A DNA stretch of 64,000 nucleotides, taken from NCBI GenBank assembly GCA_964358765.1, contig CAYHPN010000005.1, positions 13-64,012 of the forward strand, in the 5' to 3' direction. Source of the stretch: Candidatus Woesearchaeota archaeon (GTDB taxonomy: Archaea > Nanobdellota > Nanobdellia > Pacearchaeales > GW2011-AR1). The notes under the pieces are model-generated. The model searched no databases. It was not told the DNA's origin and saw only the letters and a list, made by a program, of their open reading frames with translations. Below are positions 32,362 through 54,452 of this stretch, piece after piece (within the stretch, counting starts at the first letter, position 1; every line of letters begins with the position of its first letter). Both the position numbers and the translations under genes were made by a program.

Positions 32362-32853
32362 ATGGTAAAGACTTATGGAGCAGTAGATAGAAGACATAGA
32401 AAGAGAAGAAGTGATGCTGGAAGAAAGAGAAGAAGTTATAGGGGCAAACCTGTTAAAAAGAAAAGAGATATTCTCTGGCAAAAAAGAATCGGAGATAAAC
32501 AAACATTAAAACTATGGGTCTGGGAAAAGGGAACAATGTCTCGGGATGGAAGAAGTAAATGGAATAGAAGAATCAGACCTTTCATCAAACCAATAGTCTA
32601 CAGATTCAGAATGAGAATTGATGCTGATATTTCTTACCTAACTACTAAAGAAAAGATTGAACAATTCCTTTTAGATATAATTGAATATGATGGCGAGTTT
32701 CTTCTTATGGGTTTCAGCAATGCAAAAAATAGGTTTCATACTAAGCCAGTAAAAATTTGTAGAGTTGTTATATTCAATTCGAGAGAAGGACTTAGAGCCA
32801 GAATGATTCAAGATTACAGACTATGGAGATACTGGTTTTACAAAGGAGATTAA
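32362..32853 (+). CDS. conserved basic protein coupled to the serine recombinase (unknown function)
   Basis: Homologous to 39741-40226 (shared LKLWVW(E/Q)K(G/E)TMS, GRSKWNR, RPFIK, RMRIDA, SYLTTK, MGFSNA, KPVKICR, MIQDYRLWRYWFY). It ends 1 nt before the recombinase start. Confidence 0.7.
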   Translation: MVKTYGAVDRRHRKRRSDAGRKRRSYRGKPVKKKRDILWQKRIGDKQTLKLWVWEKGTMSRDGRSKWNRRIRPFIKPIVYRFRMRIDADISYLTTKEKIEQFLLDIIEYDGEFLLMGFSNAKNRFHTKPVKICRVVIFNSREGLRARMIQDYRLWRYWFYKGD

Positions 32854-32854
32854 A

Positions 32855-33613
32855 ATGGAATCTAAAACAAATTCACAAAGTGCAGTAGCTTATATTAGAT
32901 TATCTTCTGATGATAGTTCTAACCCTTCACTATCCCCTCAAAACCAACAAGACATTATAAGGAATCATGCAGAAGCCAAAGGACTAAACATAATTCAAAT
33001 ATATGAAGACATAAACAAGACTGGCTCTAACATCTTCAGAAAGGGGCTTGAACAATTAATGAAAGATGCAAGAGAAGGAAAATTCAATACAGTATTTATT
33101 AAGGACTGGTCAAGGCTCTCTCGAAACATCATAGACCAAGAAACAATAATCAAAGAGCTAAACAATCTCAAAATAGAAATAATCTCTTGCGATGGTATTG
33201 AAGACAAGAAAGCAAGACAGGTGACAGGACTAACAAATGAATGGTTTATTGATGAGTGCAAAAAGAAACAGCAACAAGTTCATAAGTTAAAACTGGAAGC
33301 AAAAATCCCTTGCTCCAGAGCCCCGTATGGATACTCTATGAGTAAGAAGCTAAAGAAATTTATCGTGAATCAAGAAGAAGCTCAGGATGTAAAAAAGATA
33401 TTTGAATTAAGAAGTGAAGGAAAATCAATCAGTGAAATAGCCCGAGAGTTTAAGATGTCTCCCAGTAAAGTTTTTGGAATACTAAGGAACAAGACTTATC
33501 TTGGTTTTATAAAATACAAGTCCGAATTAATTCAAGCCCATGAACCTATAATAACTGAAGAGATGTTCAGCAGGGTGAATAATAATTCAGTTTATTCATC
33601 TGGAAAAAAATAA
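32855..33613 (+). CDS. small serine recombinase (resolvase/invertase-type)
   Basis: Catalytic N-terminus AVAYIRLSSDDSSNPSLSPQNQ. HTH GKSISEIAREFKMSPSKVFGILRN. Long identical stretches with 40219-40962 (QIYEDINKTGSNIFRKGLEQLMKDA). Confidence 0.82.
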   Translation: MESKTNSQSAVAYIRLSSDDSSNPSLSPQNQQDIIRNHAEAKGLNIIQIYEDINKTGSNIFRKGLEQLMKDAREGKFNTVFIKDWSRLSRNIIDQETIIKELNNLKIEIISCDGIEDKKARQVTGLTNEWFIDECKKKQQQVHKLKLEAKIPCSRAPYGYSMSKKLKKFIVNQEEAQDVKKIFELRSEGKSISEIAREFKMSPSKVFGILRNKTYLGFIKYKSELIQAHEPIITEEMFSRVNNNSVYSSGKK

Positions 33614-36328: not shown

Positions 36329-36946
36329 ATGATAGAACAAATAAATAAATTTATAAAGGGGTTTGTTCTATTAAATAGAATGGCAGGTAGAAAAAAAGAA
36401 AAGCTCGTTTATAGCTATATTGCTGGAGATAAAAATAGAAAGAGAATAATAGAGTTATGCAAAACTCCTAAGAGTTTCACAGAACTAAAACAAATTCTAA
36501 AGCTCTCAACTGGTTCTATTGCCCATCATTTAGAGATATTAGAGAAAGCTAAAGTAATTGAAAAGACCGAAATTAGAGAAGGCGAAGGATGGAAAAGAGG
36601 AAAACAAGTATCTCTCTTGACTAATTTTTCAGTTCTTGAACGATTAAAGATAGAAGAAGATAATTATTGGAGGGCTCAAGGCATTCTACCTGATGAAGGC
36701 ATACCTCCAATAGAGAGAAAAATATTGTCGGATGTCTTTAAAATCATTGAAAAAATAAAGAGAGAGAAGAAAAGACCTGCTGAATTTTGGGAGATTAGAA
36801 AAGTGCTTGATGATAAAAAGTATAAGATGGATGATTTAGAGTTAACATCATTTCTTCAAAGCACGATTCTAAATAATGTTGAGCTATTTAGATTTGATAT
36901 TAGTAAAGAAGGTATAGAAAAATTAGAAGAGTTAAAAACCGAATAA
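36329..36946 (+). CDS. winged-HTH (ArsR/TrmB-like) regulator
   Basis: KTPKSFTELKQILKLSTGSIAHHLEILEKAKVIEK. Positional counterpart of 52207-52719. Confidence 0.6.
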   Translation: MIEQINKFIKGFVLLNRMAGRKKEKLVYSYIAGDKNRKRIIELCKTPKSFTELKQILKLSTGSIAHHLEILEKAKVIEKTEIREGEGWKRGKQVSLLTNFSVLERLKIEEDNYWRAQGILPDEGIPPIERKILSDVFKIIEKIKREKKRPAEFWEIRKVLDDKKYKMDDLELTSFLQSTILNNVELFRFDISKEGIEKLEELKTE

Positions 36947-37221
36947 TAATTCAAAAACCATACTTAAAATCCACAAAAAGCAACCCAAAGTATCAAAACA
37001 TCATAAAAAACATGTAAAATAGTTCGGGAATGCAAATAAGATTAAGAGCTTTCCGACGGATGATGTGAACTATTGGAACAAAAAGGAAAATAGCCTATTG
37101 GGCAACCAAAATTAGCAATGGAAAACCAAAAAATCAGCAAAGTTTATATAGAAGCACCACTTTACAATATTAGAAAAATAGAGTTAGTTTATCGTCGGAA
37201 AAACTGACATGGGAGCAGACA

Positions 37222-37377: not shown

Positions 37378-37878
37378 ATGGAAATGTCATACGATAGAAT
37401 AGGAAACACTCGGATAAGAGAAAGATGCGTTAGAGATGGTAAGATAGTTGGACGAAAAAGAAGTATCTTTGACAAGGTAAATGAGATTAAAAGTGATATT
37501 AAAGCATCTATACCCGAAATTAACGATGATAAGCTCATACCTCTACTGAGCAAGATAAGGACTTATTACTGCAATAAAAAGAAAGGCGTGCCACTGGGTA
37601 GAAGGGGGCAAAAAGGATTTAGAAGCCTAACTCAAGTTGAAACTCTGGTCTTTGATTATATGTTGAAGAATAACCTCAATCCCAGCACAACCTATAGATG
37701 GTTTATTGCTACACGATTACCTCAGGACATAAGAGAGAAGCTGGCAAAGGGGCAGATAGGGCAAAGAAAGGCAATGGAAATCTCAGCAAACAGGAGACGC
37801 ACTAAAAACAGCGTCAATGGTTTAATCATGATGGAAGAAATAAGAAACATAATCCAGAAGCTGGATTGGAGCGGATAA
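37378..37878 (+). CDS. conserved element protein (homologue of 26261-26746)
   Basis: See 26261-26746. Strong AAGGAGG upstream (37368-37374). Confidence 0.7.
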   Translation: MEMSYDRIGNTRIRERCVRDGKIVGRKRSIFDKVNEIKSDIKASIPEINDDKLIPLLSKIRTYYCNKKKGVPLGRRGQKGFRSLTQVETLVFDYMLKNNLNPSTTYRWFIATRLPQDIREKLAKGQIGQRKAMEISANRRRTKNSVNGLIMMEEIRNIIQKLDWSG

Positions 37879-37879
37879 A

Positions 37880-38128
37880 ATGAAAAAAACAGAAATAAAC
37901 TCTCCTCGAGACATGATTACTTTTTTATGGTCAAAGAATGAAAGAGCCAATAAACAAATTCGCAAGTTAATACATCATACGGATGAAGTAAGAAAAATGG
38001 GATTCGAATTGTTTGATGAGAATACTAAAAAATATTATAGACGTCTGGTGGTTGATATGATTTGCTCAATAGAAAAGGCAAAACAGGAAATTCTTAAAAT
38101 TAAAGGGGAGCTTGATGGAGGAAAATAA
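37880..38128 (+). CDS. hypothetical small protein
   Basis: ORF track (82 aa), tightly packed between two element genes. Confidence 0.45.
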   Translation: MKKTEINSPRDMITFLWSKNERANKQIRKLIHHTDEVRKMGFELFDENTKKYYRRLVVDMICSIEKAKQEILKIKGELDGGK

Positions 38129-39236
38129 AATGGACAATATAAACACAAACAAAGATACAAACAAAATAATCGAAGAAATCAATAAGGTATTGAATAAACA
38201 AAGAATGCACTATAAAGAGATTTATGAACAATTAATCTCGGAAAAAGTTATTCCGCCTAATTCAGAAAAGGAGTTCAAAAATCTTTATGCATGGGCTTTA
38301 GAAATGGGATATATTGATAAGATGAGAATAAAAAACTGGGGCAAGAAAAGAGGAAAGCTCCCAAAGTATTTTACTAAGAAACAATTAATCCAAATATTTG
38401 ATGTTGCAGATAGACCTAAAGATGCGATTGCTTTTTTTCTTGCATTAATGTGTGGTTTGAGAATAAATGAAATCTGCACCCTAAAAATAAGGAATATTGA
38501 TTTTGAGAATCATAGACTCTTTATAGGGGACAGTAAAAATCCAAATAGGTCAAGAGATAATTATGGAAAAGATAGATATGTTGATTTTGACCCAGCAATA
38601 GAAGGAGTATTAAAGAAGTGGATTGAAATAATCGGAAACAGCAGTGAATGGTTTTTACCTTCAGATAAAAGTCCAGATATGCATTTAAGAAATAAATCTT
38701 TGCATGAAAGATTAAGATTATACCTAAAGGAAGCAGGGATTCTTCAAATAGATTATACAATGAAAGTTTCTCAAAGAGTAAGAGGAAAGAGAATCATAAA
38801 AACAGTGAACAGATACACAAGATATTTTCATTGCTTCAGACACACAATGGCTTGCATAATTTATAATAAAACTGGAGATATTTATGTTGTGAATAGATTT
38901 TTAGGACATAATCAATTAGATACGACCGCAGTTTATGCAAAAGTGATAGACACAAAGATGAAAACATCAATCGCAAGTGTATTTAATTCGCTTCATTATA
39001 ACTTTCATAATGGAGAGCATTTGCCAAATCCAAACCCCATCAAGAGCACCCTAACACAGTCATCTCCAGTAGTGGAAACTGTAGCCAACAGCCCGTTAGA
39101 TTTGTTAGGACTTCAGCTTGTTAATAATGAAATAAGTCAAGAAGAATATGTTAGAAAAAGAAAGCTTCTGGAGTCTGAAGGCTATAAACAAATCATTGAA
39201 ATAAAAGACTCAAGTGAAAATGAAAGGAAAAGATAA
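38115..39236 (+). CDS. tyrosine recombinase/integrase with N-terminal extension
   Basis: GLRINEICTLK, HCFRHTMACI, FLGHNQLDTTAVYAKV. The track start at 38112 is TTG, and the first ATG is at 38115. Confidence 0.86.
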   Translation: MEENKMDNINTNKDTNKIIEEINKVLNKQRMHYKEIYEQLISEKVIPPNSEKEFKNLYAWALEMGYIDKMRIKNWGKKRGKLPKYFTKKQLIQIFDVADRPKDAIAFFLALMCGLRINEICTLKIRNIDFENHRLFIGDSKNPNRSRDNYGKDRYVDFDPAIEGVLKKWIEIIGNSSEWFLPSDKSPDMHLRNKSLHERLRLYLKEAGILQIDYTMKVSQRVRGKRIIKTVNRYTRYFHCFRHTMACIIYNKTGDIYVVNRFLGHNQLDTTAVYAKVIDTKMKTSIASVFNSLHYNFHNGEHLPNPNPIKSTLTQSSPVVETVANSPLDLLGLQLVNNEISQEEYVRKRKLLESEGYKQIIEIKDSSENERKR

Positions 39237-39731: not shown

Positions 39732-39740
39732 TTGAATAGT

Positions 39741-40226
39741 ATGAAGACTGTTGGAGCAATTGATAAAAGGAAAAGAAGACAAAGAAGCGACTATGGAAAG
39801 AAGAGAGAGTTCTACAGAGGCAAACGTGTTAAAAAGAGAAGAGAAATAATCTGGAATAAAAAACAAGGACAGAAGGAAGTGTTGAAATTATGGGTGTGGC
39901 AAAAGGAAACAATGAGCCCCGAAGGGAGGTCTAAATGGAATAGGAAAGTTAGACCTTTCATTAAGAATATTGTTTACATCCCAAGAATGAGAATTGATGC
40001 CCATGTAAGTTATCTAACAACAAAGCAAAGTATAGAACAACTCTTTCTCGAAGTAATAGGTTACACTGGAGAGTTTTTAATTATGGGCTTCAGTAATGCA
40101 GGAAACAAATTCCATTGCAAACCTGTAAAGATTTGCAGAATTATTATTCACGAATCTAAAGAATGTCTTCGGAGCAGGATGATTCAAGATTACAGACTCT
40201 GGAGGTATTGGTTTTATCATGACTGA
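39741..40226 (+). CDS. conserved basic protein coupled to the serine recombinase
   Basis: The track start at 39732 is TTG. ATG 39741 gives MKTVGAIDKRKRRQRSD, parallel to MVKTYGAVDRRHRKRRSD of 32362. It overlaps the recombinase gene by 8 nt. Confidence 0.7.
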   Translation: MKTVGAIDKRKRRQRSDYGKKREFYRGKRVKKRREIIWNKKQGQKEVLKLWVWQKETMSPEGRSKWNRKVRPFIKNIVYIPRMRIDAHVSYLTTKQSIEQLFLEVIGYTGEFLIMGFSNAGNKFHCKPVKICRIIIHESKECLRSRMIQDYRLWRYWFYHD

Positions 40227-40962
40227 AAATGAATCTAAGATAATCAATGCAGTAGCCTATATTCGCTTATCTGCGGATGATAGTGCTAACCCTTCATTGT
40301 CTCCTCAAAACCAACAAGACATCATAAGGAGTCATGCAGAAGCTAAAGGATTAAAGATAGTTCAAATATATGAAGACATAAACAAGACAGGCTCAAATAT
40401 TTTTAGAAAGGGACTTGAGCAATTAATGAAAGATGCAAACTCCAAAAAATTCCAAGTTGTAATTTTTAAAGACTGGTCAAGAATCTCCAGAAGTATCGTA
40501 GACCAAGAGTCAATAGTAAAAGAATTGAACAGTATGGGGATTGAAGTAATTTCTTGTGATGGAGTCTCAGATAAAAAGATTAGGCAAGTAACGGGGCTTA
40601 CCAATGAATGGTTCATTGATGAGTGCAGGAGAAAACAACAGCAAGTTCACAAAATAAAGCTTGAAGCAAAAGTTCCATGTTCAAGACCCCCTTACGGATA
40701 TTCAATGAGCAAAAAACTAAAGCGTTTTGTTATTAATCCAGAAGAAGCTCAAGATGTTAAAAGAATCTTTGAATTAAGAAGTGAAGGAAAATCGATTAAC
40801 GAAATAGCCAAAGAGTATAAGATGTCTCCAAGTAAGATTTTTGGGATGCTTAAAAACCAAAGTTATCTGGGTTTCATAAAATACAAAACCGAACTAATCC
40901 CAGCCCATGAACTAATAATATCGCCAGAGCTTTTCAATAAACTGAATAATAATTCAGCCTAA
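40219..40962 (+). CDS. small serine recombinase
   Basis: AVAYIRLSADDSANPSLSPQNQ. HTH GKSINEIAKEYKMSPSKIFGMLKN. Confidence 0.82.
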   Translation: MTENESKIINAVAYIRLSADDSANPSLSPQNQQDIIRSHAEAKGLKIVQIYEDINKTGSNIFRKGLEQLMKDANSKKFQVVIFKDWSRISRSIVDQESIVKELNSMGIEVISCDGVSDKKIRQVTGLTNEWFIDECRRKQQQVHKIKLEAKVPCSRPPYGYSMSKKLKRFVINPEEAQDVKRIFELRSEGKSINEIAKEYKMSPSKIFGMLKNQSYLGFIKYKTELIPAHELIISPELFNKLNNNSA

Positions 40963-41147
40963 TGAACTTTTGTTCAGTTTTATAAGTAGTTTTATAAATA
41001 AGAACTTCTTTTTTGTTAAATAAGCCTTTATAAGCTATTCCATGAACAGCGAGGATTGTCAGGTTTAAGTAGTGAAACATTTAAGTAAAAATTGAATAAT
41101 AATTCAGTTTTGAATAGCTTTTTAAAAAGCATAAACATGGGTTTAAC

Positions 41148-43892
41148 ATGGGATTAGAACTACACACACGAAATAATCTACTGGCAGATAAAGAAGAGGT
41201 TACATCGGATGAATATCTGGAAGTATACGGAAGTAGGATAGTCCAGGATAGCGAAAAATTGTTTTTGAAAGATTTTCTATTCCCTCTTCTTGGCAAGAAA
41301 GGGATGATTTATGTAATACCCCAATATCCATTTATTGATTCTGAGGGAAGATTAAGAAGAATTGATTTTGCGTTAATCAAAGACAACATAAAAATTGCTC
41401 TGGAAGTTAATGGAGAAACTTATCATGCTGAGGGAATAATTCCAAATGACATGTTCGATGATAACTTACAACGACAAAATGAGATATTAAATGCTGGATG
41501 GAATTTACAAAGATTTTCTTTCAATCAGTTACAAGATGACCGTTGGAGAAAAAGAGTCATGGATATGTTGCATAAAGTTGTCTCACGATATGCCCCAGAG
41601 ATAATTTCAGAAGATTCGATTAAACCTAATTATTTACAGGTTATGGCTTTAGAGGCACTTGATTTTTATCGAGAAAAAGGATGGAAAAAAGGTATTGTAG
41701 TTCTTCCTACAGGGACTGGAAAAACTTTTCTGTCTGCATTCGATGCTAAAAAGTTTGATGGTAGAGTATTGTTTATTGTCCATAGAATAGATATTTTAAG
41801 CCAGTCTAAGGATGCTTTTGAAAAAGTATGGGCACAAGCTAAACTGGGATTGCTAACAGGAGAGGTTAAAGAGCATCTTCATGATTCTAAAGTTTTATTC
41901 GCCTCTAAGGATAGCCTAAGAAATCCAGAATACCTCTCTTTATTTTCTCCGACAGAATTTGATTATATAATTATAGATGAGGTTCATCATGGACAAGCTC
42001 CCTCTTATCAGTCGATTATTAAACATTTTCAGCCAAGAAAATTCATTCTTGGGATGACGGCAACACCTGATAGGATGGATAGAAAAGATATATTTGAATT
42101 ATTTGATTACAATAAGGTTTTTGAGTATACTTTAAATGATGCTATTGAAAATGGATTCTTAGTTCCCTATACTTATTATGGTCTAAAGGATAATATAGAT
42201 TATTCCAAAATAAGATATAATGGTCTGAAATATAATGTGCAAGACTTGGACAAGTATCTCATTATAGAAAAAAGAAATGAGCAAATTCTGAAGGAATATA
42301 TTGAGAAAGGGGGAGGAAATAAAGCATTAGGTTTCTGTTGTTCTATTCATCATGCAAATAAAATGGCACAGTATTTTAATGAGCATGGGATTCCTGCTAT
42401 AGCAATAACTTCTGAAACAGAAAATAGGGAAGACAAGATTAAGGATTTTAGAGACAATAAATATGCAGTTGCTTTCACTGTAGACATATTTAACGAGGGA
42501 ATTGATTTTCCAGACCTAAGAGTTCTATTATTTATAAGACCTACAGAATCGAAGACGGTTTTTATGCAACAATTAGGTAGGGGACTAAGATTGTCTCCAG
42601 GAAAAGAGAGGGCAATTGTTTTAGATTTTATTACAAATTATAAAAAAGCTAATCAGATTAGAAAATATCTTTCTAAAAGAAGTAAAGAAAAAAAAGCCAC
42701 TTCAGGAAGAATAGAGAAGATTATTTACGAGTATGTTCCAAAATGTGAAGTTCATTTTGATTCAGAAGTAGAAGAAATATTAAATAGGCAAGATAAAGAT
42801 GAAAGAGAAATCTCAAAAGAAGACTTATTAGATTCGTATTATTCTCTCGCTGAAAAACTTGGAAGAAAACCAACACAAGAGGACATCAATGAGCAAGGGG
42901 AATTTAAGGTCTCAAAATATATCTCTATTTATGGCTCATGGATTAAGTTTCTTCGTGAAATTGGAGAGTTCACAGAAGCAAGTTATCATTATCCTCAAGG
43001 AGTCCATTTAGGACATATCTTCTATATACTAAAAACTCTGTCAGAAAATAAACGGGAGAAAACACACTTAGATGATTCATACATTAGAATTAGAGGTAAT
43101 CTCGGTTCAGATAGAGTAGGCACATTTCAAAGACAAACTAAATATAAATTGCAAGCTTTAATGGAAATGGGTCTCATAACGGATGATAGAACACTTAGCT
43201 CCGATGAAAAATATAATATAGAATTAACTCCTGAAGGGAAAGAGCTCTATAGAATTTTGAAACCTCTAATCGGAAAAGTTGATTTATCTTTCTCAAAAAA
43301 TGAAGGAGGAATACCTTCATGGGACATGAAATTAAATCCACAAGAATTTAATGTTGCACTCTGGAATTTTGTTCAATCAGATAAAACAAAAAAAGAATAT
43401 ATCCAAAGAGAAATATTAGAAATTCATGCAGTTTCGCAAATGTTAAACTATTTATATAAAATTGAAAGGCAAAAGACAATAAAAAAATCTTCTGTATATG
43501 AGGGATTTTTTAAAGCACCATTTGTTAAAATGTATTGTGACCAAAATGGCATAGATATTGCGACAGAGGAAGGGGCGAAACATAGATGTCCCTTTTTGTT
43601 GAATTTGCTGGAATCAATAGGAGTTTTATCTCAGACAAGAAGTGAAATTATTTTGTCGAAATTTTTAGTATGTAAACAGACTATGCAAATTTATTCCAAA
43701 GAAAGTGAGGGAAACATTAGTGATAGGATTCACAGAGTCGGCAAGATTCTGTCAGCAAAATCATCCGATAAATTAGACTCCGAAGAAGAATCATTACTCA
43801 AGGAGAATTTTGGGAAGTTATTCTTATCAGATAAATTTTATTTATCGGACTTTGAGATTTTAAATAATAGCGGTGATAAAAATGTCAAATAA
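41148..43892 (+). CDS. DUF559/Vsr-like endonuclease domain fused to an SF2 (type III restriction Res-like) helicase, with a ~350-aa C-terminal region
   Basis: Nuclease-like RRIDFAL...IALEVNGETYH...NAGWNLQRF. Helicase motifs I VLPTGTGKT, II IIDEVHH, III GMTATP, VI QQLGRGLR. 914 aa. Confidence 0.75.
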   Translation: MGLELHTRNNLLADKEEVTSDEYLEVYGSRIVQDSEKLFLKDFLFPLLGKKGMIYVIPQYPFIDSEGRLRRIDFALIKDNIKIALEVNGETYHAEGIIPNDMFDDNLQRQNEILNAGWNLQRFSFNQLQDDRWRKRVMDMLHKVVSRYAPEIISEDSIKPNYLQVMALEALDFYREKGWKKGIVVLPTGTGKTFLSAFDAKKFDGRVLFIVHRIDILSQSKDAFEKVWAQAKLGLLTGEVKEHLHDSKVLFASKDSLRNPEYLSLFSPTEFDYIIIDEVHHGQAPSYQSIIKHFQPRKFILGMTATPDRMDRKDIFELFDYNKVFEYTLNDAIENGFLVPYTYYGLKDNIDYSKIRYNGLKYNVQDLDKYLIIEKRNEQILKEYIEKGGGNKALGFCCSIHHANKMAQYFNEHGIPAIAITSETENREDKIKDFRDNKYAVAFTVDIFNEGIDFPDLRVLLFIRPTESKTVFMQQLGRGLRLSPGKERAIVLDFITNYKKANQIRKYLSKRSKEKKATSGRIEKIIYEYVPKCEVHFDSEVEEILNRQDKDEREISKEDLLDSYYSLAEKLGRKPTQEDINEQGEFKVSKYISIYGSWIKFLREIGEFTEASYHYPQGVHLGHIFYILKTLSENKREKTHLDDSYIRIRGNLGSDRVGTFQRQTKYKLQALMEMGLITDDRTLSSDEKYNIELTPEGKELYRILKPLIGKVDLSFSKNEGGIPSWDMKLNPQEFNVALWNFVQSDKTKKEYIQREILEIHAVSQMLNYLYKIERQKTIKKSSVYEGFFKAPFVKMYCDQNGIDIATEEGAKHRCPFLLNLLESIGVLSQTRSEIILSKFLVCKQTMQIYSKESEGNISDRIHRVGKILSAKSSDKLDSEEESLLKENFGKLFLSDKFYLSDFEILNNSGDKNVK

Positions 43893-44835
43893 ATCACATT
43901 TTAACGCAGGACATAGAGGCATGAATTTTTTGAAGAAAAAAGGGATAAAACATAGTTCTAATATTGATTTCGTAATTCCTGAAAAAACTTATCATGGATT
44001 TTTTATTAAAGACTCTATACAGTTTTTAAAAACACTTCCAGACTCATCTGTGCAGTTGGTATTAATTGACCCCCCGTATAATTTAGATTTGGAGACGTGG
44101 GATACTTTTTCAGATTATTTAGATTGGGCAAAACAATGGATGGATGAAATATATCGAGTATTAAAAGATTCTGGAAGCTGTGTTATTTTTGGAGGATTTC
44201 AATACCAAGATTTAAAGAAAGGCGATTTATTAGAACTTTTACATTATGCTCGACATAAAACTAAACTAAGATTTACAAATTTAGTTATTTGGTATTATAA
44301 GAATGGTATGAGTGCACATAGATTTTTTGCTAATCGTCATGAAGAGGCAGTATGGTTGACAAAAACAAAACAATATTATTTTGATTTAGATTCAGTTAGA
44401 GCACCGTATTCGGAAGAAGCTAAAAAATCGGCACTTCGGGATAAAAGACTTGTTCCTGAAAATATTGAAAAAGGAAAAAATCCTACCAATGTCTGGGAGA
44501 TTGGTAGGTTAAATGGTAATTCTGTTGAAAGAGTTGGACACCCCACTCAAAAACCATTGGAGATTATAAGAAGATTTGTTAATAGCCTTTCTTATCCTGG
44601 CTCAATAGTATTGGATTTTTTTGCAGGTTCTGGAACAACAGGAAGAATTTGCATAGAAGAGGGTCGCCATAGCATACTTGTAGACAATGACCCCAAATCA
44701 TTAGATTTTTTCAATAAACATTTGAATAATATGAAATCGACAGGGGATATAAAGTCCCATGAGGTTTTTATCAATCCAGATTTAAATGATTTATTAAAAA
44801 AATTGGAAGAAAAAGAAAGTATCCAAAAGAATTAA
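43882..44835 (+). CDS. DNA methyltransferase, beta-class (N6-adenine or N4-cytosine)
   Basis: Catalytic motif IV LIDPPYNL precedes AdoMet motif I VLDFFAGSGTTG. The track start at 43873 is GTG and the first ATG is at 43882. It overlaps the upstream gene. Confidence 0.82.
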   Translation: MSNKSHFNAGHRGMNFLKKKGIKHSSNIDFVIPEKTYHGFFIKDSIQFLKTLPDSSVQLVLIDPPYNLDLETWDTFSDYLDWAKQWMDEIYRVLKDSGSCVIFGGFQYQDLKKGDLLELLHYARHKTKLRFTNLVIWYYKNGMSAHRFFANRHEEAVWLTKTKQYYFDLDSVRAPYSEEAKKSALRDKRLVPENIEKGKNPTNVWEIGRLNGNSVERVGHPTQKPLEIIRRFVNSLSYPGSIVLDFFAGSGTTGRICIEEGRHSILVDNDPKSLDFFNKHLNNMKSTGDIKSHEVFINPDLNDLLKKLEEKESIQKN

Positions 44836-44841
44836 TAAACA

Positions 44842-45528
44842 ATGATAAAACAAAAAGAAGTGGCAATCGAACAGAAAGGTTATAAGTTATCACCATCAAC
44901 ATTGAACTTAATGCATGAGTGTCCTCGATGTTTTTGGTTATCTGAACATGATGTATGGAAAAGACCAAACGGAATATTCCCCTCGCTTCCTTCTGGGATG
45001 GATGGTGTTTTAAAAAAACATTTTGATAAGTTTATGGAAAAAGGAAAACTTCCTCCCGAGTTATGTGATAATTCTGAATGTAAAAACCTTAAACTATTTG
45101 ATGATAAGGAGCTCTTGAAAGAATGGAGAAACTCCAGAAAAGGATTATGGTTTGAAGATAAAGAAGGGAATATTTTACATGGAGGAATTGATAATCTGAT
45201 GGTCAATAAGACTAATGGTAAATTTATTGTCCTTGACTACAAAACAAGGGGATTTCCATTAAAAGAAGATACACATGAACACTATCAAAGTCAGCTTAAT
45301 ATCTATGTTTGGCTTCTTGAGAAGTTAGGACATAAGACTGAAAACTTTGCATATTTGTTATTTTATCATCCTAAAGAAGTGTTAGAGACTGGAGAAGTTG
45401 TTTTTAATACAGATTTAAAGAAAATGAAAATCTCGCCTGAAGATGCAGAAAAGCTTTTCAATAATGCAATTAAAATGCTTAATGAAGACTGCCCAAAAAA
45501 ATCATGCTGTTGGTGTGAGAAGGTATAA
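44842..45528 (+). CDS. PD-(D/E)XK nuclease, Cas4/RecB-like, with Cys cluster
   Basis: N-terminal CPRCFW. Core GIDNL...VLDYKT. QSQLNIYVWLL (QxxxY). C-terminal CPKKSCCWC. Confidence 0.65.
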   Translation: MIKQKEVAIEQKGYKLSPSTLNLMHECPRCFWLSEHDVWKRPNGIFPSLPSGMDGVLKKHFDKFMEKGKLPPELCDNSECKNLKLFDDKELLKEWRNSRKGLWFEDKEGNILHGGIDNLMVNKTNGKFIVLDYKTRGFPLKEDTHEHYQSQLNIYVWLLEKLGHKTENFAYLLFYHPKEVLETGEVVFNTDLKKMKISPEDAEKLFNNAIKMLNEDCPKKSCCWCEKV

Positions 45529-45591: not shown

Positions 45592-46158
45592 ATGTTAGGA
45601 GACATATATTTAGGAACTGCACTTGCTATTTTTTTAGCAATCTTTGGATGGAGCGAAAGTATTTTTGGTTTATCTCAGAGAACAAAAGAAAAGGAAGCAG
45701 ATTTCATTAGAAAATCAAAACTGACATTCGAGAAATACCTTGAATTGAAAAAGCTTATTTCTGCAACACAAAAACTTGGGCAGGCAGAATATACAAAGAA
45801 ACTCGCAAGTATCCTTAAAGGAACGCATATCGGGGCAGGTGACAAGGGCACATTCGATAAACTAAGGGAAAATAGTTTAACTCTTACTCAATGGGATAAA
45901 CAAAATAAAAACAAAAAGACCGTATTAAGTGGATTGTTTATCTATCTCTTTATAGCTGGAACAGTCATGCTACTTTTTGAAAATAATGTAACACCTTTTT
46001 TTGAGATGAGCTTGGAGTCATGGATGATAATCTTTCAATCTATACTCTTCATAATTATCATAGTTGGAGCGTTAATATTCAACAAAATAAGGAAATTTGA
46101 GATTGAGATACAGTCAAATTTGAACTATCTCATATTGAGGATTCCCTCAGGGGAGTAA
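45592..46158 (+). CDS. three-TM membrane protein with a ~100-aa soluble loop
   Basis: TM helices LGTALAIFLAIFGW, LSGLFIYLFIAGTVMLLF and MIIFQSILFIIIIVGALIF. No family recognised. Confidence 0.55.
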   Translation: MLGDIYLGTALAIFLAIFGWSESIFGLSQRTKEKEADFIRKSKLTFEKYLELKKLISATQKLGQAEYTKKLASILKGTHIGAGDKGTFDKLRENSLTLTQWDKQNKNKKTVLSGLFIYLFIAGTVMLLFENNVTPFFEMSLESWMIIFQSILFIIIIVGALIFNKIRKFEIEIQSNLNYLILRIPSGE

Positions 46159-46159
46159 T

Positions 46160-46525
46160 ATGGGTGGAAGAAAGTCCTATCCAAACAAAAAGTATCTTGG
46201 TGACTCAGCAGGAGTCAAGAAAGAAGTTAAACAGTTAAAAGACTACATCGAAAACAAAGATGTAGAAAAAATATCTTCTCAAGCATTTAATGTTCTATCG
46301 ACTGCAAGAAAACCTATACAATATTCAGCTTATTCAACAAAATTCTTTCCAGAAGTAATAAAGAATCTTCCTAAATGGAAAGAAGAAAAAGATGTCAATC
46401 AGCTAAGAAGGGAAGTAACATCTTCTTGGTCTAAAGTTAAAGAAAAAAATAAGCTTAGTGTTCCAAAAGAAGTAGACAGGATAATAGTCGAGAATACGGT
46501 TAAATTAGTGGAGGGCAAAAAATGA
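46160..46525 (+). CDS. hypothetical Lys-rich protein
   Basis: ORF track (121 aa). It starts 1 nt after the upstream stop and overlaps the downstream gene by 4 nt. Confidence 0.5.
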   Translation: MGGRKSYPNKKYLGDSAGVKKEVKQLKDYIENKDVEKISSQAFNVLSTARKPIQYSAYSTKFFPEVIKNLPKWKEEKDVNQLRREVTSSWSKVKEKNKLSVPKEVDRIIVENTVKLVEGKK

Positions 46526-46857
46526 GCTCTCCATCTATCTCTAATGTCAGAACCGTTTATATCGAATGGCATGTGGATATTGTAATGGATTTAATAGACC
46601 AGATATTAAAATCACCTCAGTTAATTTCTGGCACAAATCAGATTAATCCGAATGATGCCACACATATTAAAAAGAATCAAAAGAAAATTGCCACAGTCGC
46701 ATTAGAAAAGGAAGCGGATTATCTAATTAAAAAATATAAGATTACCGACACAGATGAGCTGTTTAAAGTTATTGGAGATTTATCCTCTAAAAAGATTGAG
46801 ACTCTCAGAAGAAAATGTATTGATGAAGCAATAAAGGAACTCGCAAAAAATGGCTAA
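46522..46857 (+). CDS. hypothetical protein
   Basis: ORF track (111 aa). It is coupled by overlaps on both sides. Confidence 0.5.
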   Translation: MSSPSISNVRTVYIEWHVDIVMDLIDQILKSPQLISGTNQINPNDATHIKKNQKKIATVALEKEADYLIKKYKITDTDELFKVIGDLSSKKIETLRRKCIDEAIKELAKNG

Positions 46858-48085
46858 GAAATTATTCTATTGTTCTCCCAATCCCTTGATGCGTTTTCTA
46901 TGGGAGGACGAAATCTCTGCAACATTATACTGTATTGCCAACACCCTATTCATGTTAGAAAAGAAAATTAAAAATGAAGAATCACAAAAAACTGTGAGTA
47001 TTGATTACTTTGGAGAAATCACCCAAGAAAACCAAAAGAAAATAAGTGCTCTATTAAGAAATATAGTATTAGATGTTCTATGCGAGGATGTTAATTTTGT
47101 CTTCAAAAAGCGAGAGTTACCTAAAAGTAAAAAAAAGAGAACCCCTACTTTTGAGCAGATTGATACTATTTGTTTATTCTCAGGAGGAATTGATAGCACT
47201 TTAGGAATACTTGAAAGTAAGAAGAAGTTTGATAAAGTGATGGGGCTATATATCGCCCATCAAGATTTAGGAAAGATTACCAGTAAAGTTGACAAAATTA
47301 AAAGAGAAGTATTAGACAGTGTAGGAATCCCCCTCTTTAAGTTTATAGCTCCCAGTATGGGGCAGGGGTATTCTCAACTTAGAGGTTTTCTATATGTTTT
47401 GTATTCTGCAATTTTATCAAGATACGTAAATGCAAAAAGAGTAATTGTAGCCGAATGCGGGGCTACAATGTATCAACCAAAATTTGCACCACTGGATACA
47501 ATCACATACACCACTCATCCAAGTGTCTTGAAACTCTCCAAACAAATATCTGAAATTATCTTAAAGAAACCATTTGAAATAATTACTCCTTTCGAAGATT
47601 TTACAAAGACCGAGATGATGACTTTACTCGCAGATGATGCATTACTTTCAAAAACACACTCTTGCGTAACTTCAAGATGGGATAAAAACTGCGGAACATG
47701 CTATGCTTGTATTTCTCGAATGATAGGAAGCGTAAATTTGGGTCTGTCTATTGATTATTTCAGGAGCAATGTTTTTGAAAGAAAAGATAATGAGATGTTA
47801 TCTTCTTTGATTCATTTTTGTTTAAACTTTGAGTTGCATCAAGACAATATTGACTATTGGTCTTTGAAAACAATTAAGTTATACCATAAAGAAGATTTAT
47901 TCACCAGAGCAAGTCAAGACATTTTTCTTTGCCTTAAAAAATTAGCAGAATTACAGAAACTGGATTCAGGTTATGAGATAGTTCTGGATTACTATTTGAA
48001 ATTCAAGTCAAAAGAACTTAGTAAAAGAGAAGAAATAATTAAAACCAACAGACTCTCAGCAAACTTTGAAAAAAAAGTTATTTAA
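46850..48085 (+). CDS. QueC-like PP-loop ATPase with a ~100-aa N-terminal extension
   Basis: PP-loop CLFSGGIDSTLG. The Cys motif C-x8-C-x2-C-x2-C (HSCVTSRWDKNCGTCYACISR) has the spacing I recall for the QueC zinc site. Confidence 0.75.
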   Translation: MAKKLFYCSPNPLMRFLWEDEISATLYCIANTLFMLEKKIKNEESQKTVSIDYFGEITQENQKKISALLRNIVLDVLCEDVNFVFKKRELPKSKKKRTPTFEQIDTICLFSGGIDSTLGILESKKKFDKVMGLYIAHQDLGKITSKVDKIKREVLDSVGIPLFKFIAPSMGQGYSQLRGFLYVLYSAILSRYVNAKRVIVAECGATMYQPKFAPLDTITYTTHPSVLKLSKQISEIILKKPFEIITPFEDFTKTEMMTLLADDALLSKTHSCVTSRWDKNCGTCYACISRMIGSVNLGLSIDYFRSNVFERKDNEMLSSLIHFCLNFELHQDNIDYWSLKTIKLYHKEDLFTRASQDIFLCLKKLAELQKLDSGYEIVLDYYLKFKSKELSKREEIIKTNRLSANFEKKVI

Positions 48086-48648
48086 TCTCTTTGTATCGGA
48101 ACTTTTCCCTCTGCCTGAATTTCTTTGGATAGCTCGATAATTAATGCATCATTTTTCTTAACAGTTTCTACACTGACACCTGTCGCAAATGCAATATCTC
48201 CCTCATCATTGTATATTCTATTTGGACTATACCAGTCACGAAGCCCTTCGGGGTCATATGGCTCATAACCTTCTAAGATTCGTTGTTTAAGGGTTTCTCT
48301 ATATCTCTCCTCTTCTTTTTGTTTACACTCTTCAGGAGATTTTCCAAGAGAGATTAATGCAGGTATTAGAGAAGTCCATATCTGATTTTGTAAATCTTCC
48401 ATAAAAGTAGGATGTTCGATTGAAAGCTTCATAATCTTATTATAGGACTCGTCATCTTTAATCCACTTACTCACAGTATCCTTTGAGACTCCAAATCTGC
48501 GAGCCAATCTTCTCAAGCTATAATGCTGAGGACAATCCATATGTAACCATCTACAAAATCGAAGCTCTATTAATCTCCGATATTCAATTTTTAATTTTAG
48601 TAATCGTTTAAATTCTTTCAAATCCTTAGAAGATAAATCAGAGCTCAT
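48082..48648 (-). CDS. HTH-containing element protein
   Basis: YSLRRLARRFGVSKDTVSKWIK. Last gene of the minus-strand replication operon. Convergent 4-nt overlap with 46850-48085. Confidence 0.55.
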   Translation of the reverse strand: MSSDLSSKDLKEFKRLLKLKIEYRRLIELRFCRWLHMDCPQHYSLRRLARRFGVSKDTVSKWIKDDESYNKIMKLSIEHPTFMEDLQNQIWTSLIPALISLGKSPEECKQKEEERYRETLKQRILEGYEPYDPEGLRDWYSPNRIYNDEGDIAFATGVSVETVKKNDALIIELSKEIQAEGKVPIQRD

Positions 48649-48812: not shown

Positions 48813-51125
48813 TTACCTCAGTGCCTTCCAGTAATCTGGCTTTGGATTGAAAATTTCCCCTCTTGAACGCAGATATTCAAGCACACGCATTAGTTTTACT
48901 GAATCTGAATAGTATTCAAGAAGTATTTTTGTATTTGCACCTATCCCCTCATCCAATCGAATTATATCTGCGAGAACATTTTGAGCGTTGATTTCCTTTG
49001 ATTTACAATCAGCATCCGAAACAGGCGTCATGACAGTCAGAGTGTCAGAAGATTCCTTATCTAATGTGTCAGGTGTCTGAAAGGTGTCAGAATGCCATTT
49101 ATTAATTTCATCGTCACTATACTTACACTCTGACACTTCTGACACTTTATTTTTAATAGAAGCAAGATTTGCATTATTTTGTCTAATTAAAATCTCACAT
49201 AACTTGAAGAATCCCAGCCTATACCCTCTTTGGTTGCCTGTGGGATTGGCTTTGTAATCAGTAAACCCTAATTCACGCATCAATATGCCTATCTTTGTAT
49301 TACTGACCTTATACTGATTATTTCCAGTAGAGTTCAATAATTCAATGAATCTCTCTTTTAAACGGTCAGTGGGTATGAATGTGTCAGTTTTAGCTCTACA
49401 ATACAAATCGATTAGGACTTTTGATAATATCATATCCCAAGAATTTTCATCGAGTTTATCGTCACGTATGTCGAATAACTTAGCAATGAAATTCCCCACT
49501 TCTTTTTCTAATTCCAAATCAACACAATGAGCCATAGCAATAATTGGTTTAGCCAGAATCCACTGCCTATTCTGAAGATTATAATTATTCTCAACAGTTT
49601 CAAGTGCATCCTTAAATTGCCTATAGTTTTGAAGCCCATTAATATAAGCTAAATCTCTTGCCTTGCTGTATTCCACATCAGTTTCAGTAGGGATTTCAAC
49701 ATTTCCTCGAATATCTTTTGATGGTGCAATTATCATATTAAGAGGGATGCTCCTCTTCTCTAAAGCTCCTTTGAGGGGATTAATTGAGCCTATTCGAGTA
49801 AATCCAGCAGGGTCAAATTCATCGGTCTGTTTTATATTGACATCATTTTGTCTTGGAACAGTATTCCCTTTCTCATAACTTCCATTAAGGTATTCGACGA
49901 GTTCAGAATCCCCCACATTTTTCTTTTTAGTATCATCAAATAATCTCTCAGCTTCTTCAATGTAAAGTGTCGCTTTATTATTGTGCCTATATCTAAAGAA
50001 ATTTGCAGGTGTCGGACAAAGAAACTTTTTTCCATTAAAAGATAAATTAGCACTTACCTTCATTCCTTTGCTTTTTGCACTGCCTGTAATCCCTCCATGC
50101 TTAATCATCAGAAACTTATCAAGCATATCCCAATAATATGTGCACATATCCCACAAAACACATAGAGAATACCATTGAGGAAACTCAAAGACCATAGAAT
50201 TATCATAGAATTTTTTAAACTCAGAATATACATTTTTGAAAGTTATATCGTCAGAATTATACAATCTTCTGCAAAAAGAATTTATAGAAGAAAGAGACCA
50301 CCGATTTCGTTTTAGGGTCATGACTGAATCAAAAACAAATTTAAAATCAGAGGATTCTGAATGTTCAGATATTATTTCGCCATTTTCAAAAACAAGAGCA
50401 TCTACTTTTTTATTTGTCAATGAATTATCTTTAGTTATAATCTCTTGATGAATCTTTGTTCCATAATATCTGTAAGTGACTCCGTTGATGTTAACAGAAC
50501 CAACCGCATGGTCAATAAGCGGAGGCAGATTAGATTCGTCAAGTATAAATGGTTTAAGTTTTCTCTCTCTTTCAATTCTTAATTTATTTAATCTAAACTC
50601 TTCAAGTAGGGGCTCTGTGATATTAATACCCTCTTCTTTATCTATAACTTCTTTTATTTTTCCTGTCTTCCAATGGGCAGTATTTTCTATTGGAATGAGA
50701 TGACTATCTATCTTTAGTTGAGAGTCACACCCATATCTGGATATTAAATATTCTCTTAGCTCCTCTCGTTCTTTTTTTTCTAATAGAGCTAACTTCATAT
50801 CATAGAAGAAATGTATATGTCTTGCTCTTTGTTCATCAGTTGAATAAGCATAAAATTTGAATCCGTCCTTTCTTAATCGAGATATTAGACTCAAATAATC
50901 TTCATAGTTGCCATTGTCCAAGTCCAGTATAATCTCATTTTTTAATAATTCTCTTTGGTTAACTTCGGAAATAAGCTTATCATTTCCTTGCACATCTAAG
51001 TAATTATGCCACTTAGATATTTTTTCGTCTCCATTTTTATCTTTGTATGTAGAAGCTAATCTAAAGTCGGTTGCCTGCTTCCCCATTTCATAATACAAAT
51101 AGTCGAGCCAAACTTTTTTATCCAT
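48813..51125 (-). CDS. replication protein: prim-pol (AEP)-like N-terminus plus P-loop NTPase plus C-terminal wHTH-like region
   Basis: AEP-like EIILDLDNG (DxD) and RARHIHFFY (HxH). Walker-A-like GITGSAKSKG. 770 aa. Architecture is like pRN1-type plasmid replicases. Confidence 0.6.
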   Translation of the reverse strand: MDKKVWLDYLYYEMGKQATDFRLASTYKDKNGDEKISKWHNYLDVQGNDKLISEVNQRELLKNEIILDLDNGNYEDYLSLISRLRKDGFKFYAYSTDEQRARHIHFFYDMKLALLEKKEREELREYLISRYGCDSQLKIDSHLIPIENTAHWKTGKIKEVIDKEEGINITEPLLEEFRLNKLRIERERKLKPFILDESNLPPLIDHAVGSVNINGVTYRYYGTKIHQEIITKDNSLTNKKVDALVFENGEIISEHSESSDFKFVFDSVMTLKRNRWSLSSINSFCRRLYNSDDITFKNVYSEFKKFYDNSMVFEFPQWYSLCVLWDMCTYYWDMLDKFLMIKHGGITGSAKSKGMKVSANLSFNGKKFLCPTPANFFRYRHNNKATLYIEEAERLFDDTKKKNVGDSELVEYLNGSYEKGNTVPRQNDVNIKQTDEFDPAGFTRIGSINPLKGALEKRSIPLNMIIAPSKDIRGNVEIPTETDVEYSKARDLAYINGLQNYRQFKDALETVENNYNLQNRQWILAKPIIAMAHCVDLELEKEVGNFIAKLFDIRDDKLDENSWDMILSKVLIDLYCRAKTDTFIPTDRLKERFIELLNSTGNNQYKVSNTKIGILMRELGFTDYKANPTGNQRGYRLGFFKLCEILIRQNNANLASIKNKVSEVSECKYSDDEINKWHSDTFQTPDTLDKESSDTLTVMTPVSDADCKSKEINAQNVLADIIRLDEGIGANTKILLEYYSDSVKLMRVLEYLRSRGEIFNPKPDYWKALR

Positions 51126-54117: not shown

Positions 54118-54193
54118 TTAATTTTAAGGTTTTTCAATTTTATACTTTAAATTAATTATTTGCATATAAAGTTTAATAACTTTATTGTTAGAT

Positions 54194-54304
54194 AGTTATT
54201 TTGATTGAAGTAAATTCAGCCAAAATAAGAATTTATGAGAAATTTATTTTCGAATAAATTACTTTCTGTGCGTTAGCACCTTAACTGCCCGCAAGGGTAT
54301 TAAC
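54194..54304 (+). repeat. structured intergenic repeat, copy A
   Basis: Hairpins TTATTTTG/CAAAATAA, AATTTAT/ATAAATT, GTGC-gtta-GCAC and CCC-gcaa-GGG. It aligns with copies B, C and D. Confidence 0.7.
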
Positions 54305-54343: not shown

Positions 54344-54452
54344 CCTATGGAAATTTTAGTTATTTTGTTCAAAGTAAATTTGCCCCAAATAAGAATTTAG
54401 ACGAGATTTACTCTTGGCTAAATTACAAAGCGTGCATTTGCACCCTGTCTAC
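54344..54452 (+). repeat. structured intergenic repeat, copy B (tandem to copy A)
   Basis: It begins cctatggaaat as in copy C. Hairpin 2 is AATTTAG/CTAAATT (compensatory relative to copy A). GTGC-attt-GCAC. CCCT-gtctaca-AGGG. Confidence 0.7.

Follow-up and report, generated by a model that had tools for sequence, protein, structure and literature searches.

Two adjacent forward-strand genes in a 64,000-nucleotide stretch of the genome of a Candidatus Woesearchaeota archaeon (contig CAYHPN010000005.1; hereafter the window) form a two-gene restriction-modification (R-M) module. The first gene (41148..43892) encodes a 914-amino acid (aa) protein which, from its open reading frame (ORF), its profile matches, its likeness to SauUSI and an AlphaFold2 (AF2) model, is predicted to be an ATP-dependent restriction endonuclease for unmethylated GAATTC. 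The second gene (43873..44835) encodes a 320-aa β-class N6-adenine methyltransferase (MTase), which is an orthologue of M.RsrI. A third gene of the same strand (44842..45528), encoding a 228-aa solo Cas4-like iron-sulfur (Fe-S) PD-(D/E)xK nuclease as indicated by PDDEXK_1 and Cas4 model matches, is a neighbour of the module and not one of its subunits. It is considered probable that the pair consists of an ATP-dependent restriction enzyme for unmethylated GAATTC and a Type II MTase, and that the Cas4-like gene stands beside them independently. An initial annotation, made without database searches, had regarded the three genes as one R-M-like trio carried as cargo of a mobile element. The ORFs lie where it had placed them, co-directional and overlapping or abutting, and all motifs that it had quoted can be read in the translations: IALEVNGETYH, GTGKT, DEVHH, MTATP, and QQLGRGLR in the 914-aa protein, and DPPY ahead of FAGSGTT, which is the β-class order, in the MTase. 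What did not hold is the trio as a unit, as will be detailed below.

The central evidence is the conserved linkage of the first two genes. More than 120 full-length homologues of the 914-aa protein were found, at 58-82% identity, so that its ORF is not a product of chance. For the comparison of gene neighbourhoods, 125 loci were gathered from metagenomes and from genomes, the latter taken one per species; deduplication left 73 distinct intact helicase genes, seven of which end at a contig edge, and thus 66 informative loci. All 66 have a gene for a GAATTC-type MTase adjacent to the helicase gene, frameshifted in one of them. It is an M.RsrI-like gene located directly downstream, at distances from a 14-nucleotide (nt) overlap to a gap of ~205 nt, in 61 of these loci, 11 of which have EcoRI-type genes nearby as well. 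Four loci are devoid of an M.RsrI-like gene and carry an EcoRI endonuclease gene (PF02963, 6e-148) and/or an M.EcoRI homologue (PF13651, 2e-132), and the remaining one, L028, is that with the frameshifted M.RsrI-like gene. Altogether, an EcoRI-type endonuclease and/or MTase gene is present beside the helicase gene in 15 loci. The same pairing of helicase and MTase is found on five IMG/VR contigs. With this, the view of the initial annotation that helicase-nuclease and MTase constitute a real R-M module is supported.

The stop and start codons of the two genes often overlap, and the pairwise identities of the helicases and of the MTases are correlated (r = 0.88 over 64 pairs), from which it follows that the two genes travel together. 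The archaeal hosts include Woesearchaeota, Micrarchaeota, and metagenome-assembled genomes (MAGs) of Methanosarcinales; the bacterial ones include Bacteroidota, Cyanobacteria, Bdellovibrionales, Spirochaetia, Planctomycetes, Chloroflexota, and Candidate Phyla Radiation (CPR) members, with the pair occurring in more than 10 bacterial phyla. Between lineages that are far apart, the two genes move as one unit. A plasmid database contained motor relatives and no full-length member of the family. At about 14 loci, a small gene for an XRE-type helix-turn-helix (HTH) protein is located just upstream of the restriction gene, as is the case with the controller proteins of Type II systems.

The two classes of MTase that accompany the helicase-nuclease are unrelated to each other and have the GAATTC target alone in common; therefore, the link between the restriction gene and its partner would go through the DNA sequence and not through contact between the proteins. 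Loci lacking the M.RsrI-like gene all have an EcoRI-type system within reach, a distribution to be expected if the helicase-nuclease is lethal to DNA with unmethylated GAATTC.

The MTase itself aligns with M.RsrI along its entire length. M.RsrI is the GAATTC N6-adenine methyltransferase of Rhodobacter sphaeroides, and its structure (PDB 1eg2) is matched by the window protein with an E-value of 3e-106, residues 4-293 aligning with residues 1-293 of 319. The N6_N4_Mtase profile is matched at 4e-55, and among the PADLOC models MTase_II scores best (7e-109, as compared with 1e-13 for MTase_III). The ORF begins with a GTG codon; because residue 1 of M.RsrI aligns with residue 4, and because relatives start 7-14 nt before the stop codon of the helicase gene, the true start is probably the ATG at 43882, and the overlap between the two genes would thus be ~11 nt and not 20 nt. 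By orthology, the second adenine of GAATTC is the predicted target of the enzyme, methylation yielding GA(m6A)TTC (m6A, N6-methyladenine) on the host DNA.

The 914-aa protein is composed of four parts. Profile searches gave ResIII (1.6e-35), Helicase_C, and HNH_repeat, together with a weak match of REase_MTES_1575 at residues 70-129. The N-terminal part (approximately aa 34-131; 41247..41540) is a PD-(D/E)xK nuclease domain of the MTES_1575/DUF559, Vsr-like kind, in which D73, E86, G89, E90, and H93 are invariant in the alignment of the family. The initial annotation, which had called it a DUF559/Vsr-type nuclease, was right in kind; the matches are below threshold, and PF18741 (MTES_1575) is closer than DUF559. 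The former is matched by 15 of 15 family members, with a best E-value of 4e-6 that lies below the Pfam gathering score, and the latter weakly by three of the 15, likewise below the gathering score. In the AF2 model, the domain has the topology alpha-beta-beta-beta-alpha-beta, as found in PD-(D/E)xK nucleases. A profile search against solved structures returned nothing significant for this domain (PA endonuclease, E 0.2), and the fold call is made from the sub-threshold Pfam matches in combination with the model topology.

The nuclease is followed by a helicase-like ATPase motor of superfamily 2 (SF2; approximately aa 150-501; 41595..42650) with the motifs GTGKT, DEVHH, MTATP, and QQLGRGLR, identified through ResIII, Helicase_C, and its match to SauUSI, and by a helical coupler subdomain (approximately aa 540-606; 42765..42965), which is recognized by the Pfam profile HNH_repeat and aligns with residues 611-665 of SauUSI, a part of the coupler of that enzyme. 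The SauUSI sequence (7clg) is matched by residues 149-602 at an E-value of 1.6e-66 in a phmmer search, and SauUSI is also the top Foldseek match of the full-length AF2 model, whose mean predicted local distance difference test score (pLDDT) is 82. Profile scans revealed no MTase domain, and Pfam scans neither a PLD motif or domain nor a DUF3427/SRA domain. Public records name the protein just as "DEAD/DEAH box helicase family protein". A fragment from a 0.1-µm metagenome of Hainich groundwater (L083) is 100% identical to residues 1-516 of the helicase.

The C-terminal domain of ~300 residues (aa 606-905; 42963..43862) is the predicted DNA target-recognition domain (TRD), an assignment made from the AF2 model and from the distribution of the domain. 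Its presence as an uncharacterized C-terminus had been noticed in the initial annotation; the length is ~310 aa (606-914) instead of the ~350 aa given there. The domain is modelled with confidence (pLDDT 89, predicted template modelling score 0.88) as a helical structure with small beta-hairpins and a tandem winged-helix-like arrangement. Foldseek found weak partial matches to winged-helix domains and to the recognition domains of FokI, BpuJI, and Nt.BspD6I; none has an E-value below 0.7, for which reason no specific fold family is claimed.

More can be learned from the occurrence of the domain. When a profile of residues 606-914 was searched against 1.84 billion representative proteins, 137 proteins were found, all of them members of the family or fragments thereof except for a handful of proteins of 394-480 aa. 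In these, the ~300-aa domain occupies the N-terminal part and precedes an HNH nuclease. The TRD-HNH proteins are P0414 (L147, 90-1520), P0421 (L145, 587-2029), P0427 (L148, 1059-2285), and P0439; all three fusions that were looked up adjoin, in convergent orientation, an MTase gene, and the partner of P0414 is an M.RsrI-like MTase that is 60% identical to that of the window. The C-terminal domain is tied to GAATTC MTases in two different nuclease architectures. The TRD-HNH proteins probably constitute a family of Type II restriction enzymes that has not been described before. Conversely, relatives of the motor are combined with other C-termini. In CPR bacteria (L037-L040 and L120-L125; for instance L037, 9659-16226), a motor relative that shares 49% identity across residues 158-545 ends in an AlwI-like region; behind it come an N6_N4 MTase, a C5 MTase, and a 450-aa nuclease with AlwI_N and NOV_C domains, and its locus is apparently another ATP-dependent R-M system built on the same motor. 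The more distant relative L042 carries a DUF3427 C-terminus. Homology of the window's C-terminal domain to the C-terminus of the CPR relative, or to the AlwI_N/NOV_C protein next to it, was considered, and hhalign showed none. The C-termini of the motor relatives thus differ where the partners differ, and the domain recurs in HNH fusions beside MTases; it therefore behaves as an exchangeable targeting module of restriction enzymes.

From these data a reaction scheme can be proposed. The C-terminal domain would bind unmethylated GAATTC, and this binding would switch on ATP hydrolysis and translocation along double-stranded DNA, as shown for SauUSI. The N-terminal Vsr-like nuclease, probably as a dimer, would then cut away from the site. 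Modification to GA(m6A)TTC would block binding, by which self DNA would be protected. Where an EcoRI-type R-M system is present, its MTase could take over the protection, and the M.RsrI-like gene could be lost.

SauUSI is the closest known relative. This ATP-dependent enzyme of Staphylococcus aureus lacks a companion methylase and was for that reason placed in Type IV (PMC3141236), and its PLD nuclease and SRA reader occupy residues 1-191 and 806-953, respectively (PMC7913695). Both enzymes are single chains in the order nuclease, SF2 motor, helical coupler, and reader, with the motor and the first coupler subdomain homologous over ~450 residues. The ends of the chains differ. Where SauUSI has a PLD nuclease (HxK), the 914-aa protein has a PD-(D/E)xK nuclease of the MTES_1575/DUF559-like kind, and where SauUSI has the DUF3427/SRA reader for 5-methylcytosine and 5-hydroxymethylcytosine, it has the helical, winged-helix-like C-terminal domain. 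Out of four testable features that define the SauUSI family, the 914-aa protein thus possesses the motor homology and lacks the other three. In SauUSI, the modified site triggers ATP-driven translocation and then cleavage at a distance (PMC7913695; bioRxiv 10.1101/2025.10.16.682607), and site-triggered translocation with distant cleavage is likely to be shared by the 914-aa protein. Since a cognate MTase is always adjacent, methylation is predicted to block the 914-aa enzyme and not to trigger it as in SauUSI.

Other known systems share parts of this design. With the Type II systems RsrI and EcoRI, the window pair has in common an MTase orthologous to M.RsrI and, as predicted, the same protective modification; the restriction partner there is an EcoRI/RsrI-family homodimer of ~280 aa, and here it is a 914-aa predicted ATP-dependent motor nuclease. 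A tblastn search with an EcoRI homologue detected no EcoRI-family gene in the window. The CglI and NgoAVII systems are alike in combining a separate Type II-style MTase with SF2-ATPase-dependent restriction and long-range movement on DNA (PMC4267653, PMC5737866, PMC5861437). There, a nuclease-reader with PLD and B3-like domains and a DEAD-Z1 motor are two proteins acting on an asymmetric site, whereas the 914-aa protein unites them in a single chain, its nuclease and reader being of unrelated folds; homology to CglI/NgoAVII was examined by Pfam, which gave no PLD, B3, or Z1 matches. The Type ISP enzymes LlaGI and LlaBIII also are single chains with an N-terminal PD-(D/E)xK nuclease, an SF2 motor, and a C-terminal reader, and LlaBIII (4xqk) is a weak Foldseek match of the 914-aa model; they have the MTase domain in the same chain, while in the window pair the MTase is the separate M.RsrI-like protein.

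The 228-aa protein was described correctly at the outset. The D..(D/E)xK and QxxxY motifs and the terminal cysteines are seen in the translation and are conserved in homologues, with D117, D132-Y-K134, Q151xxxY155, C27/C30, and C217/C222/C225 invariant in 22 of them. The protein thus has the RecB-type D...(D/E)xK and QxxxY motifs together with four Fe-S cysteines. It passes the cut-off of PDDEXK_1 (5e-11; 43 bits, cut-off 22) and matches Cas4 models at 5e-10 to 4e-7, with the curated Cas4 model TIGR00372 remaining at 30 bits, below its cut-off of 65. No CRISPR array or CRISPR RNA family was detected in the window, and none of the PADLOC cas models matched neighbouring proteins; as the gene is located outside a CRISPR-cas locus, it is referred to as solo-Cas4. 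Its homologues (65-90% identity) are all from DPANN archaea (Nanoarchaeota, Pacearchaeota, and similar).

An R-M gene is found within two genes of a member of this family in seven of nine sampled contexts, the remaining two having none nearby. The R-M neighbours are unrelated to each other: a PLD-SNF2 helicase with an Eco57I-like MTase, Type I HsdM, Type I HsdR, AlwI-type systems with N6_N4 MTases, Type IIG fusions, and the window pair. The closest named homologue (88% identity), from a Nanoarchaeia MAG (L126, 2703-10654; also L127 and L128), is preceded by genes for a 1072-aa PLD-SNF2 helicase, a 1109-aa Eco57I/MmeI-like MTase, and a 185-aa protein, with an integrase gene adjacent; this locus is a second case of a Cas4-like gene behind a pair of helicase-nuclease and MTase. 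That solo-Cas4 genes of DPANN archaea adjoin R-M systems has been described by Hudaiberdiev et al. (2017, PMC5704561), who suggested an uncharacterized defence role, and Cas4-family nucleases have been reported to act with another defence system, prokaryotic Argonaute (PMC12094033). The window protein agrees with the DPANN solo-Cas4 proteins of PMC5704561 in its RecB-type motifs, the four conserved cysteines, the missing CRISPR-cas locus, the DPANN host, and the R-M adjacency; it differs in the type of its R-M partner, which is not described there, and in scoring below the curated Cas4 cut-off. As the initial annotation had stated, such a nuclease is no canonical R-M component.

Several other explanations have to be weighed against that of a methylation-blocked GAATTC-specific enzyme. 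If the 914-aa protein were a modification-dependent enzyme like SauUSI, attacking foreign modified DNA, and the MTase either an orphan or a component of some other system, this would account for the best matches by profile and by structure (SauUSI and the PADLOC model mREase_IV), and defence genes frequently cluster by chance. These matches span the motor and the coupler only, however; the PLD nuclease and the DUF3427/SRA reader are absent. A GAATTC MTase gene adjoins the helicase gene at 66 of 66 informative loci; the stop codon of the one and the start codon of the other often overlap, and the two genes co-diverge. All loci devoid of the M.RsrI-like gene have an EcoRI-type system. This explanation is considered very unlikely, and the "Type IV" label assigned by PADLOC is probably wrong. 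Slightly less improbable, but still unlikely, is a Type III-like system, in which a helicase-nuclease without specificity of its own would be recruited by the MTase and the C-terminal domain would serve for docking or coupling. It is recommended by the resemblance of a β-class MTase beside a ResIII-type helicase-nuclease to the mod-res arrangement, and by the unproven role of the C-terminal domain. In enzymes of Type III such as EcoP15I, the helicase precedes a C-terminal nuclease, the mod gene precedes res, and Mod supplies the recognition; in the window pair the nuclease is N-terminal, the order of the genes is the reverse, and the MTase is orthologous over its full length to M.RsrI, a stand-alone enzyme of Type II, with the MTase_II model far ahead of MTase_III. 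A conserved docking surface is also unlikely in view of the four loci that have only an EcoRI-type MTase, of another class and fold order, and the fusion of the C-terminal domain to HNH nucleases lacking a motor fits a reader of DNA better than a docking module. From the "Type III/ISP-like logic" of the initial annotation there remains the combination of helicase-nuclease and MTase; the hardware is SauUSI-like, with nuclease, motor, coupler, and reader in one chain, and the MTase is a stand-alone one.

The remaining alternatives concern the Cas4-like gene. An obligate system of three components, with helicase-nuclease, MTase, and Cas4-like nuclease acting as one atypical defence system, is suggested by the co-directional genes of the window, which overlap by 11-20 nt and are separated by a 6-nt gap, respectively, and probably give one transcript; the short gap makes co-transcription of the Cas4-like gene likely. 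Against it stands the neighbourhood comparison: none of the other loci of the pair (~66 informative distinct loci and the five IMG/VR contigs) has the Cas4-like gene, the closest archaeal relatives (75-78% identity; L001 and L002) have other genes downstream, and the Cas4-like homologues are restricted to DPANN archaea, where their neighbours are entirely different. The initial annotation had named co-occurrence no better than chance as the outcome that would speak against the trio, and with these two partners the Cas4-like gene does not recur at all; an obligate trio is therefore scarcely credible. A further proposal complements the favoured explanation instead of competing with it. The Cas4-like protein may be a general R-M accessory in DPANN archaea, which would resect or degrade the ends left by a neighbouring restriction enzyme, thereby finishing off foreign DNA or helping to repair self-inflicted breaks in organisms without RecBCD or AddAB. 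In its favour are the seven contexts with unrelated R-M types within two genes, the same adjacency in PMC5704561, and the Cas4-family nucleases with Argonaute partners in PMC12094033. On the other side, two contexts have no R-M gene nearby, the value of seven in nine is a raw count, to be read against whatever density R-M genes have in DPANN genomes, the adjacency may just reflect residence in defence islands, and the orientation varies, the gene being divergent in L131 and L143. A general accessory function is thus rather doubtful. The gene is seen as an independent one that tends to adjoin R-M systems of any type, encoding at most an accessory end-processing nuclease.

Site counts lend further support to a GAATTC-directed system and, indirectly, to the predicted methylation. 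The tract from 21807 to 59484 (37.7 kb), which is rich in integrase and recombinase genes and carries the R-M pair, is free of GAATTC according to site counts, with 14.9 sites expected from a maximal-order Markov model and 21.1 from a first-order model (Poisson P ~3e-7). In positions 1-21806, where purL, purQ, and nadB genes are located, nine sites are observed and 11.9 expected (maximal-order Markov model), and the whole window has 11 sites where dinucleotide shuffles give 34 ± 6. As the site-free tract coincides with the integrases, the recombinases, and the R-M pair, the purge is a property of the mobile region.

A number of points weigh against a GAATTC-specific, ATP-dependent restriction enzyme. 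GATATC, the EcoRV site, is almost as depleted in 21807-59484 as GAATTC (one observed, 14.4 expected), all other 6-bp palindromes having observed/expected ratios (O/E) of at least 0.52. The window showed no R-M gene of the GATATC type, and PADLOC found no second R-M system among 10 further ORFs, so that a second system as the cause of this depletion lacks a candidate there. In the flanks of other carriers, GAATTC has an O/E of 0.52, a depletion that exceeds that of several other palindromes slightly at best; it is real but too unspecific to be used as evidence. The broken MTase gene in L028 (12684-13590), which is from Arachidicoccus ginsenosidivorans Gsoil 809 (CP042434), has two frameshifts and stands beside an intact-looking ORF for a 905-aa helicase-nuclease, a combination that one would not expect if the restriction enzyme is toxic; it could be explained by an error in sequencing, by another GAATTC MTase encoded elsewhere in the genome, or by an inactive restriction gene. 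Two of the three TRD-HNH proteins that were looked up pair with a different N6_N4 MTase, of 617-633 aa and of unknown specificity. The C-terminal domain has no Foldseek match in the PDB below E 0.7 and no SRA match, and its predicted binding to DNA derives from the context. PADLOC mREase_IV matches the 914-aa protein at 8e-69, over the motor only, which is the basis for the Type IV label. The GAATTC specificity of the MTase is predicted from orthology and from the co-occurrence with EcoRI-type genes, and all steps of the scheme, i.e., the product of the MTase, binding by the C-terminal domain, translocation, and the distant cut, are predicted from sequence and models.

Taking the favoured explanation a step further, the pair may represent a new class of R-M system, in which a SauUSI-type motor nuclease has been re-targeted to unmodified GAATTC by a new recognition domain that it shares with HNH nucleases, in which the protecting MTase can be swapped for M.EcoRI, and next to which solo-Cas4 acts as a generic post-cleavage processor in DPANN archaea. 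This wider proposal is put forward tentatively, with less confidence than the GAATTC-specific pair as such. In the searchable literature, REBASE being outside the search, no description of this family or of the pairing was found. Should the prediction of a GAATTC-specific pair hold, GAATTC would also be attacked by a translocating, ATP-consuming enzyme made of a single chain, with another kind of nuclease and a DNA-reading domain of a new type, and a methylation-blocked R-M system of the classical sort would have arisen by the rewiring of "Type IV" hardware. The mREase_IV call of PADLOC, as an automated defence annotation, would then mislabel a widespread family. The EcoRI-type loci would be a natural case of two unrelated MTases substituting for each other in the protection against the same enzyme, and the C-terminal domain would be a compact, confidently modelled candidate GAATTC-reading domain, occurring with at least two types of nuclease and thus of interest for enzyme engineering. 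Since the family is present in the cultured strains Pedobacter yulinensis and Arachidicoccus ginsenosidivorans, these predictions are directly testable. The results on the Cas4-like gene sharpen the old question of the role of solo-Cas4 nucleases in small-genome archaea without CRISPR.

Downstream of the Cas4-like gene, a separate module of four genes (45592..48085, forward strand) codes for a 188-aa membrane protein, proteins of 121 aa and 111 aa, and a 411-aa QueC/QatC-like protein, as identified from ORFs and sub-threshold QueC/QatC matches; the starts of the genes overlap or abut. The same four genes in the same order are present in L143 (5747-8236; 59-72% identity), beside a Cas4-like gene, an AlwI-type R-M system, a resolvase, and an integrase, and in L144 (5717-8227; 35-57% identity), where a Type IIG enzyme adjoins them and a Cas4-like gene is lacking. 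The 411-aa protein scores 62 bits with QatC (cut-off 280), and no Qat model of PADLOC (QatA, QatB, QatD) matched the three proteins of the same operon. The module is a candidate for an uncharacterized QueC-like defence module. The QueC-like gene was considered as a part of the trio and rejected, as it belongs to a conserved module of its own that is also found where the pair is absent and, in the case of L144, where there is no Cas4-like gene.

The region is situated among integrases and recombinases, in agreement with the location as element cargo proposed in the initial annotation. Immediately upstream of the helicase gene, a 164-aa ORF and a small serine recombinase with Resolvase and Recombinase domains, likely with a function in mobility, occupy 39732..40962 (forward strand), and a paralogous copy of this unit, with a ~164-aa ORF and a serine recombinase of 68% and 78% identity, respectively, is found at 32362-33613. 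Two units of a ~160-aa ORF and a tyrosine integrase (26261-27630 and 37378-39236) are both similar to one in L143. The paired integrase and recombinase units suggest nested or tandem integrative elements; no convincing direct repeats that could serve as attachment (att) sites were found across 34-58 kb. A 21-nt element with the palindrome TGAATAATAATTCA occurs in three copies (36933-36953, 40936-40956, and 41086-41106), two of which flank the gap from the serine recombinase gene to that of the helicase, and a TTTTAAAAA box is located ~20-28 nt upstream of the ATG of the helicase gene. The TGAATAATAATTCA element may be a recombinase or operator site, and the TTTTAAAAA box may be an archaeal-type promoter.

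Convergent with the QueC-like module, two genes of the reverse strand are found: that of a 188-aa HTH protein (48082-48648) with a weak match to MADS mad1 and transposase HTH models, and, beside it, a 770-aa ORF (48813-51125) that has no match in Pfam, NCBIfam, or PADLOC. Within the GAATTC-free, element-rich tract, the reverse strand also encodes a 428-aa SET-domain protein (30537-31823; PF00856, 5e-16). Finally, an intergenic sequence of 88 nt downstream of a TctA-like gene is present twice (54193-54280 and 54357-54444), the two copies being 74% identical and 164 nt apart.

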